From a virus (lineage: Duplodnaviria > Heunggongvirae > Uroviricota > Caudoviricetes), in IMG/VR virus record IMGVR_UViG_3300026224_000016: a DNA stretch of 9,689 bases; one strand, given 5' to 3'. The first letter of the stretch is position 1. Each line of letters opens with the position of its first letter. This document shows positions 1-7,020 of the stretch, piece after piece. Below the pieces are notes generated by a model. That model was not told where the DNA came from. It ran no database searches and saw only the letters and a list, made by a program, of their open reading frames with translations. The position numbers and the translations under genes are program-made.

Positions 1-191
1 GCTGGAAAGGCTGGGCCATATTCCTCCGGCAGAAGCAGAAAAAGCTTATTATGCTTCCATCGGAAATACTGATCTGGCAGCCTGAGTTCACAGATAAAAC
101 ACTCTCCAGGAAACCCGGGGCGGTTCAGTTGTTCCGCCTGTCGCAACATTTCCTGTGCCTGTTTACGTAATTGTTCAGGGGTAAAAGTCAT
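1..191 (-). CDS. hypothetical protein, 5' portion only (gene runs off left edge of window)
   Basis: ATG at 191-189 on the minus strand, 11 nt downstream of the helicase stop; my own translation is open to position 1 (MTFTPEQLRKQAQEMLRQAEQLNRPGFPGECFICELRLPDQYFRWKHNKLFLLLPEEYGPAFP...). No clear Shine-Dalgarno and no family recognised. Not in the ORF track because it is truncated by the window edge. Confidence 0.35.
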   Translation of the reverse strand, partial: MTFTPEQLRKQAQEMLRQAEQLNRPGFPGECFICELRLPDQYFRWKHNKLFLLLPEEYGPAFP

Positions 192-202
192 TGTCTGGTT
201 GT

Positions 203-1594
203 TCAAAAGAAACGCTCCATCTTACTGCTGTCAGTTCGTTTGTTGCTGTATCTGCGCGGCTGAGGCTGCTGCATTGGGGTGGAAAGAATCTGTGCGCTTT
301 CCTGATCCACAGGCAGAAAATGTCCGTTATAAAAACGCCGATAAATCGTCCCCAGAGAACCGTTACGTTGTTTCGTGATATTGATTTCTGCGATGCCCCT
401 GGCCTGCGTATCCGGGTTGTACACTTCATCCCTGTAAAGCATCAGAATGATGTCTGCATCCGCCTCTATTTCTCCGGAATTTTTCAGGTCTGAGTTCATG
501 GGGCGTTTATTGGGCCTGGACTCCACACCGCGGGAGAGCTGACTCAGCGCAATCAACGGAAAACCACCGGATTTTGCCAGGCCTTTAAGCCCCTTTGAGA
601 TTTCACCAACGGCAAGGTCATGACGCCCTGTGGTTCGGGTTTTTATCAGCCCGAGATAATCAACCACCACCAGCGCCGTTTCCGGATGTTTAATCAGGTG
701 ATGTTTCGTTGTTGCGCATATCTCATCAATGGTCAGGTTCGCCTGGTCCACCATCCAGATATTGCGCCCGGTCATCCGCCCCACTCCTTGTGAGAAACGT
801 GCCCAGTCTTCGTCTTCAAAGTGAGTGACAGATTTCAGGCGTGATACCGGCATTCCTCCAGCCGCAGATACCATGCGTTCACCAATCTGGATGTTCGCCA
901 TTTCCATTGTGAACAGAAGAACACCATGCCCCTGCTCAGTCACCTTGTCGATGATATCCAGCGCCAGTTCGGTTTTGCCCATCGAAGGACGTGCAGCAAT
1001 AAATACCAGGTCGCCAGGCTCCATGCCGCCCGTTTTTGCGTCCAGTTCATCAATACCGGTCATCAACGTCCTGGATTTCTCCAGCCCCTGATTCCGGCAT
1101 TCAACACGCTCAACCACTTCCGGAAGCACATCATCAATATGTACCGGCTGAATAACGCCCTTTTCCGTCGACAATGAGGCCATCATGTTCTGCGCATCCT
1201 TCAGAGCATCTTCAGCTGCTTCACAGGTATGCGCATCACGTAATTTCTGCAGCGCCTCATTCAGTGTTTTTTCTGCATCACGCAATGCGGCATTACGCCG
1301 CAACGCCGTAACATAGTGCTCCAGTGACGACTTCACCCAGGTTTTGCGCCCGGTATCAGTAATCACCGGGGCAAGTTCCGGCATCTCATTACACAACAGC
1401 ACAGGGTCAATCACGCCGGACACACGGGCCTGTCTGCAGATGCCTGTGTAGATATCCCGGTACGGTCGTACAGAAAAAACGTCCGCCGGTAGTGTGGCCA
1501 GAATATCCATCACTTCAGGATCTGCCCCTCGCAGAAAAAACGCGCCAATGACAGCGCCTTCCAGGTCATCGTTACGCCAGACAGGAGAAGTCAT
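203..1594 (-). CDS. DnaB-like replicative DNA helicase (463 aa)
   Basis: Walker A FIAARPSMGKTELALD and Walker B ALVVVDYLGLIK match the DnaB family RecA-like core. Start moved from the track's 1633 to the ATG at 1594, which has an SD (GGAGGTG, 7 nt spacer) and overlaps the upstream stop as ATGA at 1591-1594. Confidence 0.9.
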   Translation of the reverse strand: MTSPVWRNDDLEGAVIGAFFLRGADPEVMDILATLPADVFSVRPYRDIYTGICRQARVSGVIDPVLLCNEMPELAPVITDTGRKTWVKSSLEHYVTALRRNAALRDAEKTLNEALQKLRDAHTCEAAEDALKDAQNMMASLSTEKGVIQPVHIDDVLPEVVERVECRNQGLEKSRTLMTGIDELDAKTGGMEPGDLVFIAARPSMGKTELALDIIDKVTEQGHGVLLFTMEMANIQIGERMVSAAGGMPVSRLKSVTHFEDEDWARFSQGVGRMTGRNIWMVDQANLTIDEICATTKHHLIKHPETALVVVDYLGLIKTRTTGRHDLAVGEISKGLKGLAKSGGFPLIALSQLSRGVESRPNKRPMNSDLKNSGEIEADADIILMLYRDEVYNPDTQARGIAEINITKQRNGSLGTIYRRFYNGHFLPVDQESAQILSTPMQQPQPRRYSNKRTDSSKMERFF

Positions 1595-2481
1595 GCTGCC
1601 ACACCTCCGATATGTGCACGGTAACTTTCCCAACCAAACACCAGGCAGTTACGCCCACCATCAGTAACGCGATCCACAATCCGTTCACCAATGGACTCCT
1701 TAAGTTGGTCAAATGTCAGATTACTAATCAAAATTGTCGGTAAAACGCTTTCGTAACGTGCATTGATGATTTCCTGCAGGATGGTTATCTCTGTTGGCGT
1801 ACCGAACTGCACACCAACCTCATCGATGATGAGCAGGTCCAGCGATACAAAATGGTCAATAACTTCATCTTCAGTGCGTTCAGAATTGTGACGCCAGGTA
1901 TTTTTCACAGCGCGGGTCAGTCGCATGACATCCGTAATTTCGACAGTCGCCAGGTGGTGGCGAATAATATTTTTTGCCATTGATACAGCCAGGTGATTTT
2001 TCCCGGTACCGCAATTGCCAATCATGATCATGCTGGTACCCGCAGCAAGACACTTCTCCCATGAACTGGCATAGCGCCGACAAGCCTCAAGATTTCTCTG
2101 TGCGTCAGCATTCACAGCCTGGTAGTTCTCAAACTCGCAGTCCTGGAAGCGGCGGGCAATACCAGCTCTGTCAAGTAATTCATGAACTTTCAGGATGCGT
2201 AACGCCTCCTGTACCTGATCCAGTTCATTCGCAATGCAGGTCGGGCAACCAGACACCCGTTTGATGGTTTCCCCACGAACATCTGGCCCTTTCAACACCA
2301 GACGTGTGTATTTCCCGTGTTTCTCACACTCAGCAGTTTCCTCGCTTGTCAGCCAGTGTTCACAGCGCCACGGACGCTTCCCGGCACGGGCAAACTGCAT
2401 CTCCTCCTCCAGTTCCGCCCTGCGGTTGAGCAATTGCGCTTTATCGTGTTGTGCGTAGTGTTTTTTTAACTGTTCAAACAT
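1591..2481 (-). CDS. DnaC/IstB-like AAA+ helicase loader ATPase (296 aa) with N-terminal Cys-rich segment
   Basis: Walker A GNCGTGKNHLA (DnaC-type GTGKNHLA signature) and Walker B LLIIDEVG. N-terminal CEHW...CEKHG...CPTC cluster suggests a zinc-binding module. SD GAGGTG upstream of ATG 2481; stop overlaps helicase start. Confidence 0.85.
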   Translation of the reverse strand: MFEQLKKHYAQHDKAQLLNRRAELEEEMQFARAGKRPWRCEHWLTSEETAECEKHGKYTRLVLKGPDVRGETIKRVSGCPTCIANELDQVQEALRILKVHELLDRAGIARRFQDCEFENYQAVNADAQRNLEACRRYASSWEKCLAAGTSMIMIGNCGTGKNHLAVSMAKNIIRHHLATVEITDVMRLTRAVKNTWRHNSERTEDEVIDHFVSLDLLIIDEVGVQFGTPTEITILQEIINARYESVLPTILISNLTFDQLKESIGERIVDRVTDGGRNCLVFGWESYRAHIGGVAA

Positions 2482-2500
2482 TGTTCATCACCTCGAAAAA

Positions 2501-3478
2501 TCACCAGTTGAAGTTCGTTGAACCGTAGTCCTGCTCACTGAATCCCGAGATCGGGAGGCCGGTAGTTCGCCCACCTCCGGGAGCGGCTGGCTGTTGCCAG
2601 GATTCCTCGAAATGGCGATCGGGTCCAAAGAACGTCGCGGCCTGCTTCACGAACTGTGTGCCTGTATTTCCTGTAGCACGTACCCAGGCGGCATACCGCT
2701 TCACACCATCAAGCATGGTCTCCGGTTTTATTCCCTCCCTGATACGGGCTTTCCAGGCTTTGAAGGCTGCTGACTTGGAATTGCCACCAGCACGTTTGGG
2801 ATATTCCTGCCAGGCCTGTTCAAATTCCGGTGAATATTCCTGTCGGGCAGAACGCGCTGGTGCAGACGCGTCAGCGGATGCGCCAATAGTGTTTTTAGTC
2901 TCCGTTGTAATCTCTGTAGTAATCTCTGTATTTGTATCAACATTCGGCGTATCCCCTGTTCCGTTATGACGTTGGGGGGTGTTCCGTTTTAACGTAATAG
3001 CTGTATCGCTGATTGCGTTATTGCTGTTACTTTCTGGCGAAACAGAAGAAGGAGTAGTAATGGCAGCAATTGCCTGTGGGTTGATCCCGACAAACAAAAT
3101 ATTGCTGCATTTCACACCATCGAGCATTTCCACCGTGCGTAAATCCAGGGAAATAAACCCGGCATCACGAAGGCGCTTCAACGCATCCGCGGTTTCCCTT
3201 TTCCCGAAACCAAACTGCTCAGCAAACGCCTGATAACTTCTTTGCAGCTTGTCCCCCTGAAAACGCTTGCGATATCCCAGCAAAGCCCCGGTATGCTCAT
3301 CCCTGACTTCTGTCGGGCGGTACCAGTAAACGATCTCTGAGAGCAGGGCGATAGCGGTCGCATCCGGACGACCACTGGGTAGCCGAATATGTTTCCACCA
3401 GTTCGCTGGTGTGACATTGCCGGAAATATTAATTTGACCAATAGCTATAACTTCCGGTGTGGGGGCGTAACGACTCAT
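2501..3478 (-). CDS. phage replication initiation protein (O-like replisome organiser, 325 aa)
   Basis: Sits immediately upstream of the loader and helicase genes. Two-domain layout with a low-complexity linker (NTEITTEITTETK) encoded by tandem DNA repeats, as in lambda O where ori lies in the linker-coding region. Start ATG 3478 overlaps the upstream stop (ATGA). Family call is from architecture, not a search. Confidence 0.7.
   Translation of the reverse strand: MSRYAPTPEVIAIGQINISGNVTPANWWKHIRLPSGRPDATAIALLSEIVYWYRPTEVRDEHTGALLGYRKRFQGDKLQRSYQAFAEQFGFGKRETADALKRLRDAGFISLDLRTVEMLDGVKCSNILFVGINPQAIAAITTPSSVSPESNSNNAISDTAITLKRNTPQRHNGTGDTPNVDTNTEITTEITTETKNTIGASADASAPARSARQEYSPEFEQAWQEYPKRAGGNSKSAAFKAWKARIREGIKPETMLDGVKRYAAWVRATGNTGTQFVKQAATFFGPDRHFEESWQQPAAPGGGRTTGLPISGFSEQDYGSTNFNW
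2907..2930. repeat. perfect 12-bp tandem direct repeat GTAATCTCTGTA x2 inside the initiator gene; candidate origin iterons
   Basis: Read directly: 2907-2918 and 2919-2930 are identical, followed by a partial third unit (TTTGTATC). A second imperfect repeat pair GTTCCGTTATGACGTT (2958-2973) and GTTCCGTTTTAACGTA (2981-2996) lies just downstream, 13/16 identical. Confidence 0.6.
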
Positions 3479-3774
3479 ACAGCCTCCTTACGCGGCATAA
3501 CAATGGTGTAACCCCGGGCAGGCTGGAGCCGGGCTTTTGCATCAATAGTGAGCGTTGCAATTTTTCGGATACGCAGATACCCTGCCCTTTCCAGGGTCAG
3601 GGTTTCTCTGAACATTGCCTGTTTTGAACAGCAACAAAAATCGGCAAGGACCTGGTGATCAATAACCCTCTCACCTTCACCGTCTGAAGAACCCGACATC
3701 AAAACACGCAACATAATCAGGCGCTGAATCGGATTATCGAAAACACTTCCGCATACAAACTGAAAACAGTTCAC
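3475..3774 (-). CDS. hypothetical protein (99 aa), possible small DNA-binding regulator
   Basis: GTG start at 3774 preceded by SD GGGAGG with a 6-nt spacer. Start overlaps the upstream stop (GTGA) and its stop overlaps the initiator start (ATGA at 3475-3478). A possible helix-turn-helix segment (QVLADF...ERAGYLRIRK) is by eye only. Confidence 0.55.
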   Translation of the reverse strand: MNCFQFVCGSVFDNPIQRLIMLRVLMSGSSDGEGERVIDHQVLADFCCCSKQAMFRETLTLERAGYLRIRKIATLTIDAKARLQPARGYTIVMPRKEAV

Positions 3775-3995
3775 ACGGCACCTCCCAGGCGTTTAAACAT
3801 TTTTCCGGACTGAAACGCCACCAGTGGGTAACTGATGGTGTAGTTACGCCCCAGTAATTCACACACGACTTTCTGGCTTTCGGTACTGACCAGGCAAACC
3901 CGCAGAACATGGCCGTTGCTGGTGGCAAACCACTGCCCCACACGGGGGCAACGGTTGTATCGGTGATACAGGGAATTAACGACGCGGCGAATCAT
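3771..3995 (-). CDS. hypothetical protein (74 aa)
   Basis: ATG at 3995 overlaps the stop of the upstream 220-aa gene (ATGA at 3992-3995), with a GGGAAG SD-like element 7 nt upstream. The track's longer start at 4010 has no SD. No family recognised. Confidence 0.5.
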   Translation of the reverse strand: MIRRVVNSLYHRYNRCPRVGQWFATSNGHVLRVCLVSTESQKVVCELLGRNYTISYPLVAFQSGKMFKRLGGAV

Positions 3996-4654
3996 GGGCG
4001 CACTTCCCATTGATTACGGCGGAAAGCAGTGTGATTCAGGCTGGTTTCAGCCTCATGGAATGCTTCAATGCAGCTCTCGTAGTACCGCATTGTGCGCAGA
4101 CTTAACCCAAGCTGAAGCATCATCAGACCATCAAGGGTGATGTAATAACCACGCAGGGAATCGCCATACACGTGGTAAGTACCCGGAATGAAATTACGGG
4201 AGAAGAATTCACGTGAGCAGTTCAGATACTCGATTTTGTCGACGATGTTCTGGTGCATGCGCTTAAAGTGGCAGGCAACATGCAGGGAGAAAATAACAGC
4301 TTTGCCGTTGACGACTTCGATTTTCAGGTATGGGGAAGTTGGGACTGTAGCCATGATGGCAGCCTCCGTATGCAATGGATAACTTCCACCACCGGAAACG
4401 CCAATTTCACTGGTGGTGAACTGAACGGGGTTGGCGTAACCGGCGCATACGGAAACCGGCGCATCTTTCGATGCCCCCGCCCAGCCCACCATAATCTGGA
4501 TGTGAGCAAATGCGGACGATAAAAAAGACGCTGGCGCGTCGTATATCGCCGTATGCAATTCCAGGACGCCAATCCCGGCACCCGCTTTATAAGGTGCCAG
4601 AACAGTGTAACGTCCCGAAATTGCAGAATCAATATTTAGGCTTGAAACATTCAT
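3992..4654 (-). CDS. hypothetical protein (220 aa)
   Basis: Long ORF with protein-like composition, co-oriented with and coupled into the replication operon. Weak or absent SD upstream of ATG 4654. No motif recognised. Confidence 0.6.
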   Translation of the reverse strand: MNVSSLNIDSAISGRYTVLAPYKAGAGIGVLELHTAIYDAPASFLSSAFAHIQIMVGWAGASKDAPVSVCAGYANPVQFTTSEIGVSGGGSYPLHTEAAIMATVPTSPYLKIEVVNGKAVIFSLHVACHFKRMHQNIVDKIEYLNCSREFFSRNFIPGTYHVYGDSLRGYYITLDGLMMLQLGLSLRTMRYYESCIEAFHEAETSLNHTAFRRNQWEVRP

Positions 4655-5962: not shown

Positions 5963-6208
5963 TCACTTCTCGTCCTCTGTGTGCGCTAAGCTTGGGTGTG
6001 GAAAAAGCTCTGGTAGGTCTGGACGAAATTCATACGCTTGGATCTTTCCGTCGACAGCTGCAACCAATAACGGCACAAATTCTGGTGAAATCTTGTTCTT
6101 GCAGTTCAACCAATCGCAGACTGTTGACTGGGCCTTTCCGCATCGCTTGGCTAAGGCTTGCTGACTTCCAAGAATCTCAATAGCTTTCTCTATGGCTTTA
6201 TGTTTCAT
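5963..6208 (-). CDS. cro: Cro-like HTH transcriptional regulator (81 aa)
   Basis: Small HTH protein (GSQQALAKRCGKAQSTVCDWLN) transcribed divergently from the cI-like repressor. Start set to ATG 6208 with SD AGGAGA 7 nt upstream; the track's start at 6259 would lie upstream of the predicted promoter. Confidence 0.75.
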   Translation of the reverse strand: MKHKAIEKAIEILGSQQALAKRCGKAQSTVCDWLNCKNKISPEFVPLLVAAVDGKIQAYEFRPDLPELFPHPSLAHTEDEK

Positions 6209-6327: not shown

Positions 6328-7020
6328 ATGACATTTTCAGAACGACTTGATTTAGCTATGCGCAACGCAAAATTTACGCAAGGTAGGCTGGCCAAAGAAG
6401 TGGGTATGGCTCAGTCCAGTGTCAATCAACTACTTAACAAAGCCAACGGTTCCAGAAAAACAGTCGAAATAGCAAAAGTTTTGGGCGTTAACCCGGAATG
6501 GCTCGCATCGGGTGTTGGCCCAATGGAAATCGTGACCTCTGCAGACTCACACCAAATACGTAACATTTCTGAAGATTGGGTTACTGATTCGTATGTCGTG
6601 GATGTTTTAGACATCAGATATAGTTGCGGACCTGGTAGTTATAACTCTGATTTTCCTGACATTGTCAGATCTATAGCGATAGAACCAGGATACGCATCAA
6701 GAGTTTTTGGCGGCAGGCCAGCATCAGCAATCAAAGCAATAAACGCCCACGGCGACAGTATGAAAGGCACAATAGACCCTGAAGACTTGGTATTTGTAGA
6801 TGTATCAGTTCGCACATTTAATGGTGATGGTATATACGCCTTTACATACTCTGGAACATCGCACATCAAAAGACTTCAAAAAATCAAAGATACTCTAACG
6901 GTGATATCTGACAACCCAGCTTACAAGGATTGGGCTATCGAACCGGAAGACTTCGAACAACTTCACATTGACGGAAAAGTAATTGTCAGTTGGCCCATGA
7001 CACTACACCGTTTTGCATAA
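6328..7020 (+). CDS. cI: CI-like prophage repressor: N-terminal XRE-type HTH plus C-terminal LexA/S24 autopeptidase domain (230 aa)
   Basis: HTH FTQGRLAKEVGMAQSSVNQLLN. S24 catalytic signatures: Ser in AHGDSMKG and Lys in HIKRLQK. SD GGAGG 9 nt before ATG 6328. Divergent from cro. Confidence 0.9.
   Translation: MTFSERLDLAMRNAKFTQGRLAKEVGMAQSSVNQLLNKANGSRKTVEIAKVLGVNPEWLASGVGPMEIVTSADSHQIRNISEDWVTDSYVVDVLDIRYSCGPGSYNSDFPDIVRSIAIEPGYASRVFGGRPASAIKAINAHGDSMKGTIDPEDLVFVDVSVRTFNGDGIYAFTYSGTSHIKRLQKIKDTLTVISDNPAYKDWAIEPEDFEQLHIDGKVIVSWPMTLHRFA

Follow-up and report, generated by a model that had tools for sequence, protein, structure and literature searches.

Can a prophage keep its origin of replication inside the gene for its own initiator? 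The question is raised by a 9,689-nucleotide stretch of DNA from the IMG/VR virus record IMGVR_UViG_3300026224_000016 (Caudoviricetes), referred to here as the window, in which a minus-strand gene encodes a replication initiator (Table 1). An earlier reading made without database searches, the sequence-only reading, had proposed that iteron-like repeats inside this gene, at 2898-2997, form a candidate origin built like that of lambda. We conclude, with a probability of roughly 0.7, that positions 2894-2997, possibly extending to 3019, are the core of the prophage replication origin, set in frame within the region of the prophage's initiator gene that codes for the linker. On our best reading, 2937-2997 is a putative initiator-binding array and 2894-2935 a putative adjoining element for unwinding and helicase entry. 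We call the latter the universal element (UE), a name coined in this analysis; its consensus is ACA RAG ANT ACW, present two to four times.

Two Kinds of Repeat in the Linker-Coding Region

The first kind of repeat is a 12-bp tandem, detected by Tandem Repeats Finder at 2899-2930 (period 12, 2.7 copies, 90% matches). Within it GTAATCTCTGTA occurs perfectly at 2907-2918 and at 2919-2930, and a partial third copy lies at 2894-2905 in plus-strand numbering, that is, downstream in gene orientation. The second kind comprises two 16-bp units, TGTTCCGTTATGACGT (2957-2972) and TGTTCCGTTTTAACGT (2980-2995), which are identical at 14 of 16 positions and lie 23 bp apart. The window has two occurrences of the pattern TTCCGTTNTNACGT, where 0.06 would be expected, a count reached by none of 200 shuffles, in a test that was post hoc; the comparisons with related loci go much further than these statistics. 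The tandem, its partial third copy and the paired 16-bp units had all been described in the sequence-only reading and are present as described. A third TCCGTT, which had been listed with these units, does exist at 2901-2906, but it falls inside the degenerate third 12-nt unit of UE (ACG GAG ACT) and is rejected as an iteron; relatives read ACA GAG ACT at that position, so the resemblance is fortuitous.

The repeats were also said to lie in the part of the gene that codes for a low-complexity linker, and the protein agrees with this. Its linker spans residues ~136-205, and the repeats at 2894-2997 code for residues ~161-195, between a winged-helix domain and an exchangeable C-terminal domain; in gene orientation this stretch encodes ...AITLKRNTPQRHNGTGDTPNVDTNTEITTEITTETKN....

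Aligned with their counterparts in related genes, the repeats fall into a register of 22-nt blocks, compiled for 20 lineages, with one dyad-symmetric site of 14-16 bp per block and C- or G-rich spacers between. The window units designated -18, -40, -62 and -84 line up with the units of 19 other lineages. The -62 block (2976-2997) contains TTACGTTAAAACGGAA; the core of its iteron is invariant in 46 of 46 E. coli-type sequences, and the iteron is homologous by position to TTACGTTGAAACGTAA and TTCCGTTGAAACGGAA of Xenorhabdus, Serratia and Yersinia. The -40 block (2954-2975) contains CAACGTCATAACGGAA, and its iteron varies at two positions only in the 46 sequences, namely base three of the register block and a single base in the central spacer. 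The -18 site has GATACGCCGAA in common with the Rosenbergiella unit at the equal position, its dyad symmetry having been lost.

A comparison of repeat copy number across related prophages had been suggested together with the original proposal. Full UE units number two in 40, three in 5 and four in 1 of the 46 E. coli-type sequences, always changing in frame, and one additional 12-bp unit is found in two of the six closest E. coli relatives. Over the same 46 sequences there is hardly any variation in either strong site (2957-2974 and 2980-2997), and the -84 unit is variable.

Of all 40-mers in the initiator gene, and in the entire replication module (window 1-4600), 2905-2944 is the least stable, with a duplex stability of -45.8 kcal/mol against a window mean of -55.5 (standard deviation 4.0); the GC fraction at 2880-2939 is 0.37. 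No Rfam family overlaps the repeat region, and the single-strand folding of 2890-3025 is unremarkable (z -1.6), with UE unpaired. The window contains no DnaA boxes, and a promoter scan of 2400-3900 returned no promoter-like sites, UE also being free of any promoter-like match by eye. The anatomy proposed in the sequence-only reading, with repeats in the linker-coding middle of the initiator gene as in lambda O, is strongly supported by the comparisons: the dyad sites stand in a conserved 22-bp register, the 12-bp tandem is under selection at the nucleotide level, and this least stable stretch comes directly downstream of the sites, in the order known from lambda.

The Element and Its Register Across Phyla

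A search with the N-terminal domain (N-domain) of the initiator recovered homologues at 40-70% identity, and a pattern scan of one genome per species yielded 80 loci from Enterobacterales, Marinomonas, Acinetobacter, Rickettsiales, many Bacillota, Chloroflexota, Cyanobacteria, Atribacterota, Armatimonadota and others. Nearly all of these loci encode a repeated linker peptide such as LRSDVTPPTLKRNT, followed by T(N/Y)TE(I/N)TTE(I/N)T. The DNA that encodes UE is essentially one sequence in all phyla sampled, ACA (A/T)AT ACA GAG ATT ACT ACA GAG ATT ACT. The window departs from the 30-nt consensus by one mismatch, and 55 non-redundant genes of the 81 analysed match it with six mismatches or fewer.

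UE always starts 16-18 nt past the last site of the array. Across 64 non-redundant homologous loci, perfect 5+5 dyads are centred at -9, -31, -53, -75, -98, -120 and -144 from the UE start, a phase of 22 bp. The sequence of the site differs by lineage and the register is constant: the site is TACGTTGAAACGTA in Enterobacterales, TACATTAGAATGTA in Caldanaerobacter, TACAAAATTTTGTA in Coprococcus, ATGTAATCAATTACAT in Syntrophomonas, TGGCGCCACAGCGCCA in Chloroflexota and TTCCCCACAGGGAA in Rickettsiaceae. The 12-bp tandem, proposed earlier as an origin repeat, is universally conserved as DNA and is not a lineage-specific iteron, and its role is probably other than that of the dyad sites.

The exact UE pattern ATACAGAGANTACNACAGAGANTAC, with 22 specified bases, has at least 120 matches in IMG/VR. 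Among the matches listed, 116 of 120 have a readable frame, and all 116 lie in an open reading frame (ORF) with an initiator-type N-terminus: 76 of the window type (YWYRP), 16 of the type 'RPIAY...YW', 8 of the type 'LNEAI.LQQ..YW' and 16 others; the ORFs of the other four are cut off upstream of UE and hence untypable. Every N-domain type among the matches listed has its own array of 22-23-bp repeats leading up to UE. Profile-profile comparison of three of the types gave probabilities of 87%, 68% and 96%, which suggests that the three UE-bearing N-domains are remote homologues.

The window-type N-domain alone comprises 2,440 clusters (50% identity) at E<=1e-10. It is found in phages of Acinetobacter, Bacillus, Geobacillus, Staphylococcus and Eggerthella and on plasmids of Vagococcus, Nostoc, Deinococcus, Megaira and others. 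The homologue on a 16-kb Vagococcus plasmid has both dyads and UE; in the larger Nostoc plasmids UE is degenerate. GC skew is weak in cyanobacteria. The first gene of the 145-kb Protochlamydia plasmid pPNK (NZ_LN879503.1; L211-L213) encodes an N-domain homologue of 532 residues, without UE or phased dyads.

Selection on the DNA Rather Than the Peptide

About 200 related loci form the basis of the comparison, and for codon counts genes were chosen by peptide and not by DNA. Within UE, Glu is encoded by GAG 52 times and never by GAA, against 370:570 elsewhere in the same genes (p 7e-21), and Lys by AAG 15 times and never by AAA, against 291:595 elsewhere. Ile is encoded by ATT in 35 cases and by no other Ile codon, and the Asn codons stand at 40:0 in favour of AAT. 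At most UE codons the third position has an entropy of 0.1-0.6 bit, compared with 1.0-2.0 bits for the protein motif IVYWYRP, which is invariant in the same genes, and the second position of the UE I/N/T codon (ATT/AAT/ACT), where substitution changes the amino acid, is free to vary. The constraint thus tracks the nucleotide position and not the amino acid, pointing to a function of the nucleic acid itself.

The dyad sites can be read in the same way. As 22 is not divisible by 3, one copy of a site is translated in a different frame from the next, and a single DNA motif appears as LRSDV and PTLKRN in Serratia and as TLKRNT and RHNGT in the window. This frame switching rules out a conserved peptide as the explanation. 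Taken together, these comparisons of aligned genes show that selection acts on the DNA of the repeats and not on the peptide. It is unusual for DNA embedded in a coding region to be preserved at each base from phylum to phylum when the encoded residues may differ.

These data bear directly on the possibility that the repeats have no function as DNA, having arisen by slippage in a linker of low complexity and/or forming a conserved junction whose effect is merely to promote recombination of modules. The linker peptide is indeed of low complexity, the 12-nt unit varies in number from 2 to 4 through slippage, and the mosaic joint between N- and C-terminal modules lies at or beside UE. However, the synonymous positions of UE are fixed across phyla, whereas the invariant protein motif in the same genes is saturated at synonymous sites; one and the same DNA motif is translated in more than one frame; the 22-bp phase of the sites is fixed relative to UE; and selection for recombination potential could not keep at least 20 bases constant over all phyla sampled. 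This explanation is already strongly disfavoured, and we consider it very unlikely.

A Modular Initiator

Residues Y51, W52, Y53, R54 and P55 are invariant across the family alignments, and the window protein carries the corresponding (L/A)(S/A)(E/D)I(V/I)YW(Y/H)RP helix in its N-domain, whose winged-helix fold we count among the direct results. A search of PDB sequences with the N-domain returned nothing beyond weak similarity to GntR-type helix-turn-helix proteins. Neither Pfam nor NCBIfam has a model for this N-domain or for the other UE-linked N-domain types, and at E<=0.01 the two databases together gave zero family matches for the complete initiator of 325 residues. The C-terminal domain is presumed to be an exchangeable module that recruits a helicase or its loader. 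C-terminal domains in the family are varied, including Phg_2220_C, DnaB_2, DUF6017 and the window type, which fits a module docking onto different helicase-loading systems.

The junction between the two parts is sharp. In a close set of six E. coli prophage homologues with 91-95% overall identity, the N-domain and linker are near-invariant, with 0-3 variable columns per 30 nt, and the C-terminal third has 10-28; variability climbs sharply 3' of UE. In a megablast search against phage genomes, matches were confined to the C-terminal part (window 2501-2929) and came from Stx phages with other N-domains, and the window C-domain is common to the initiators of Stx1, Stx2 and phiP27 phages at 90-97% DNA identity. 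The mosaic joint lies directly after UE, at window ~2888-2929 (loci compared: L088 1501-2394, L089 1420-2328, L090 1420-2346).

The Stx-phage initiators with the window C-domain carry two other N-domain/repeat cassettes. The 'O' proteins among them belong to the second ('RPIAY...YW') N-domain type, with their own sites and UE, and in phiP27 L17 the N-domain is of a third kind, accompanied by TCAGAWTCTGA repeats but not by UE. Since the C-terminal part alone is shared with Stx phages, the N-domain, the sites and UE form one jointly inherited cassette, to which the C-domain is swapped.

The last ~30 residues of the initiator (window 2501-2590; relatives L002-L007) exist in at least three versions, ending in ...GLPISGFSEQDYGSTNFNW, ...VDVLAGLGAMSDKFGKSSNKLTF or ...DPYFKASYDNVDYSQIPEGFRG, and the version goes with the gene content downstream. 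In relatives L004-L007 no phage DnaC-like or DnaB-like genes follow the initiator; a methyltransferase gene stands there instead, preceded by PerC in L005-L007. That the tail tracks the downstream genes suggests that it selects the helicase-loading partner.

Many database 'proteins' of the window initiator family, in clusters of up to 435 members, end soon after the repeats. The tails of such truncated members (P0018, P0020, P0022, P0025; compare L037), for example DKYKEYYRKYRGDYLS, are UE read in another frame. A change of one unit (22 nt) in site number, or a collapse of the repeats in assembly, would shift the frame and so truncate the initiator.

Proposed Mechanism

The repeats, their register, their conservation at the nucleotide level, the winged-helix fold and the low duplex stability are direct observations. 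For binding, melting, helicase recruitment and origin activity we reason by analogy with lambda O/ori-lambda and with RepA_N plasmids. The N-terminal winged-helix domain would bind the dyad-symmetric sites of 15-18 bp, probably as dimers, and the two strong sites would take part together with one or two degenerate ones. A spacing of 22-23 bp is about two helical turns and would place the sites on one face of the DNA. The resulting nucleoprotein complex would then destabilise the adjoining 12-nt-repeat element, which may act as the site of unwinding and helicase entry and may be recognised sequence-specifically, perhaps as single-stranded DNA. The exchangeable C-domain would recruit the DnaC-like loader and the DnaB-like helicase encoded just downstream.

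Several observations weigh against this reading. UE is only moderately AT-rich (~33% GC), its 12-nt period is unlike the helical repeat, and its conservation is stricter than a passive unwinding element requires, so that its true role may differ. It is always read in one frame, and some contribution of the peptide is possible. The window has just two good sites, both of them imperfect dyads, the remaining units being degenerate, compared with four dyad sites in the same register in its Serratia, Xenorhabdus and Yersinia relatives. Pairings between recognition helix and half-site (KRE with ACGTT, KRS with ACAAA, KRQ with ACATT) are suggestive but confounded by phylogeny, and are not used as proof. 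Similarly, the cumulative GC-skew minimum of pPNK falls at its initiator gene, but a long co-oriented tra operon confounds it and the homologue lacks UE, so it is not used as evidence.

The strictness of UE conservation, which exceeds what a passive AT-rich tract needs, probably reflects specific recognition, by a conserved part of the initiator or by another factor. It also opens the possibility that the roles are different or reversed, UE being what the conserved winged-helix domain, or a conserved host factor, primarily recognises and the dyads serving another function such as specificity, incompatibility or bending. Fixed bases are needless in a passive unwinding element, UE is kept together with the invariant N-domain motif (the SEIVYWYRP-type helix) across phyla and in three N-domain types, and monomeric Rep proteins of iteron plasmids bind direct repeats, as is well established. 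On the other side, the two-turn phasing of the dyads is the classic one for initiator arrays, there seems to be co-variation between dyads and recognition helix, with the same phylogenetic confounding, and the window offers neither a DnaA box nor a promoter-like match in UE. To our knowledge, there is no host factor of such specificity common to Proteobacteria, Bacillota, Chloroflexota and Cyanobacteria. We therefore regard a reversal of roles as unlikely.

A wider proposal, tentative and put at somewhat under even odds, is that UE, in two to four or more copies, is an undescribed coding-embedded origin component, conserved at the nucleotide level, of a superfamily of winged-helix initiators in temperate phages, plasmids and other mobile elements of all phyla sampled. 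It would always follow a lineage-specific array of 22-bp phase, may be bound by the aromatic YW helix (perhaps as single-stranded DNA), and would constitute a portable module for unwinding and helicase loading as well as a signature that locates the origin in thousands of elements still lacking annotation.

The Replication Module and Its Surroundings

By similarity, the window is part of the early region of a lambdoid, phiP27/Stx2e-like E. coli prophage. The initiator gene is 99.8% identical to a gene in the stx2e-carrying prophage of strain cq9 (NZ_CP031546), and the RefSeq label for the identical gene is 'hypothetical protein'. On the minus strand the genes are ordered as a Rha-type regulator, an Ash-family gene, two small ORFs, the initiator, the DnaC-like gene and the DnaB-like gene (Table 1). 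The succession of initiator, loader and helicase genes in the row of an early-right operon supports the origin reading.

Table 1. Coordinates of the window features discussed in the text
Feature	Position	Strand	Basis and remarks
Initiator gene, 325 residues	2501-3478	-	ORF list; PHROGs phrog_270 'replication initiation protein', E 4.7e-75
N-terminal winged-helix DNA-binding domain, residues 1-~135	3074-3478	-	Invariant motif LSEIVYWYRP
-84 unit, weak/degenerate site, AACGCAATCAGCGATACAGCTA in gene orientation	2998-3019	.	Register table; most variable unit in 46 E. coli-type sequences
-62 iteron, TTACGTTAAAACGGAACA in gene orientation	2980-2997	.	Half-sites TTACGT/TTCCGT; read T-L-K-R-N-T
-40 iteron, CAACGTCATAACGGAACA in gene orientation	2957-2974	.	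Half-sites CAACGT/TTCCGT; read in other frame, R-H-N-G-T
-18 degenerate site, TACGCCGAATGTTGA in gene orientation	2937-2951 (block 2932-2953)	.	Register table
UE, ACAAAT + ACAGAGATTACT + ACAGAGATTACA + degenerate ACGGAGACTAAA in gene orientation	2894-2935	.	Encodes TNTEITTEITTETK
C-terminal domain, residues ~196-325	2501-2893	-	PHROG matches 'DnaD-like helicase loader' and 'primosomal protein' on residues ~180-300
DnaC-like helicase loader gene	1591-2481	-	Directly downstream of initiator; Pfam IstB_IS21 1.8e-15; phrog_50 'DnaC-like helicase loader' 2.9e-83
DnaB-like replicative helicase gene	203-1633	-	Pfam DnaB_C 8.9e-73; TIGR00665 2.7e-92
Ash-family ORF	3992-4654	-	Upstream of replication genes
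cI-like repressor gene	6328-7020	+	

The composition of this module also bears on the idea that the repeats are binding sites for regulation, such as autoregulation by a transcriptional roadblock, copy-number control or handcuffing, or immunity between related phages, and that the origin lies elsewhere. Dyad symmetry is typical of operators bound by dimers, and iteron plasmids are known to use such sites for control as well as initiation (summarised in PMC5703833). However, the replication module has no other repeat cluster and no AT-rich non-coding candidate, the sites adjoin a conserved element of low stability at more than 100 loci without fail, and small plasmids have the same cassette. 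A purely regulatory function is accordingly improbable in our estimation; regulatory and origin roles are in any case compatible with each other.

A 99-residue ORF on the minus strand at 3475-3774, overlapping the initiator start codon, matches phrog_4617 'replication initiation protein' (1e-27) and is present beside the initiator in all six E. coli relatives examined. Farther upstream, the Ash-family ORF contains two Rfam matches at gathering score, both on the minus strand: a C4 antisense RNA at 4409-4496 (80.5 bits) and the Hfq-binding small RNA isrK at 4521-4597 (61.8 bits). Together they suggest a P1/P7-type antisense immunity element in the prophage. A separate 12-bp tandem, TCTCAATAGCTT, is present in 2.1 copies at 6175-6199, in the divergent region upstream of the cI-like repressor gene, and may represent operator repeats.

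Comparison With Known Origins

Origins inside initiator genes are already known, and the kind of arrangement proposed here is not new. The middle of lambda gene O contains iterons and an AT-rich tract, and two iterons plus the tract are enough for unwinding (PMC7466680). Lambda O/ori-lambda, and likewise the O/ori of lambdoid Stx phages, resembles the putative origin of the window in lying in mid-initiator gene, where it codes for the interdomain linker. In ori-lambda, too, dyad sites stand about two helical turns apart, with the tract of low stability next in the direction of transcription (PMC7466680). The N-domain of lambda O binds the origin and its C-domain recruits the helicase system, as predicted for the window protein, and in both cases N-domain and origin make up one exchangeable specificity cassette.

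The differences from lambda are nevertheless clear. The window N-domain matches no O-family model in Pfam or NCBIfam and has only weak 'O-like' PHROG matches (phrog_391, 2.1e-6; phrog_678, 4.7e-5). Its partners are DnaC-like and DnaB-like proteins rather than an analogue of lambda P. A 12-nt repeat conserved in sequence across phyla takes the place of a plain AT-rich tract, and two strong sites are present where lambda has four to six.

RepA_N plasmid initiators (pSK41 RepA, pAD1 RepA) are similar in that their origin repeats are central in rep and encode a linker (PMC5703833). In pSK41 the Rep boxes occupy the centre of rep, and the linker that they encode is dispensable in trans (PMC5703833). 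Unlike these proteins, the window initiator lacks the RepA_N (PF06970) N-terminal domain.

The origins of iteron plasmids (R6K, pPS10, F and RK2; Rep_3-type) have arrays of ~22-bp sites beside a DNA unwinding element of short repeats, as proposed for the window, and in some of these plasmids the Rep protein binds one strand of the unwinding element. In these plasmids, however, the origin lies between genes, monomers bind iterons arranged as direct repeats, and the initiator has a pair of winged-helix domains. The window has neither a Rep_3 match nor DnaA boxes, and its sites are intragenic and dyad-symmetric.

A literature search of incomplete coverage found no description of UE, of the origin of this family, or of a 22-bp register tied to a fixed element, and nothing on DUF6017. 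For origins inside genes it returned only the work on lambda and RepA_N, and the papers found on the replication regions of non-lambdoid Stx phages make no mention of origins or iterons.

Implications

If the origin reading is true, a replication origin will have been located for a common E. coli prophage group to which Stx2e-type converting phages belong and whose replication modules are now annotated 'hypothetical protein'. A caution for annotation follows as well, since a change of one 22-nt unit shifts the frame and would account for the many truncated database 'proteins' of this initiator family. The DNA motif of 24-36 nt together with its 22-bp-phased array would provide a searchable mark of intragenic origins in phages, plasmids and integrative elements of many phyla. 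For the Stx2e-type prophages themselves, the control of replication bears on toxin gene dosage.

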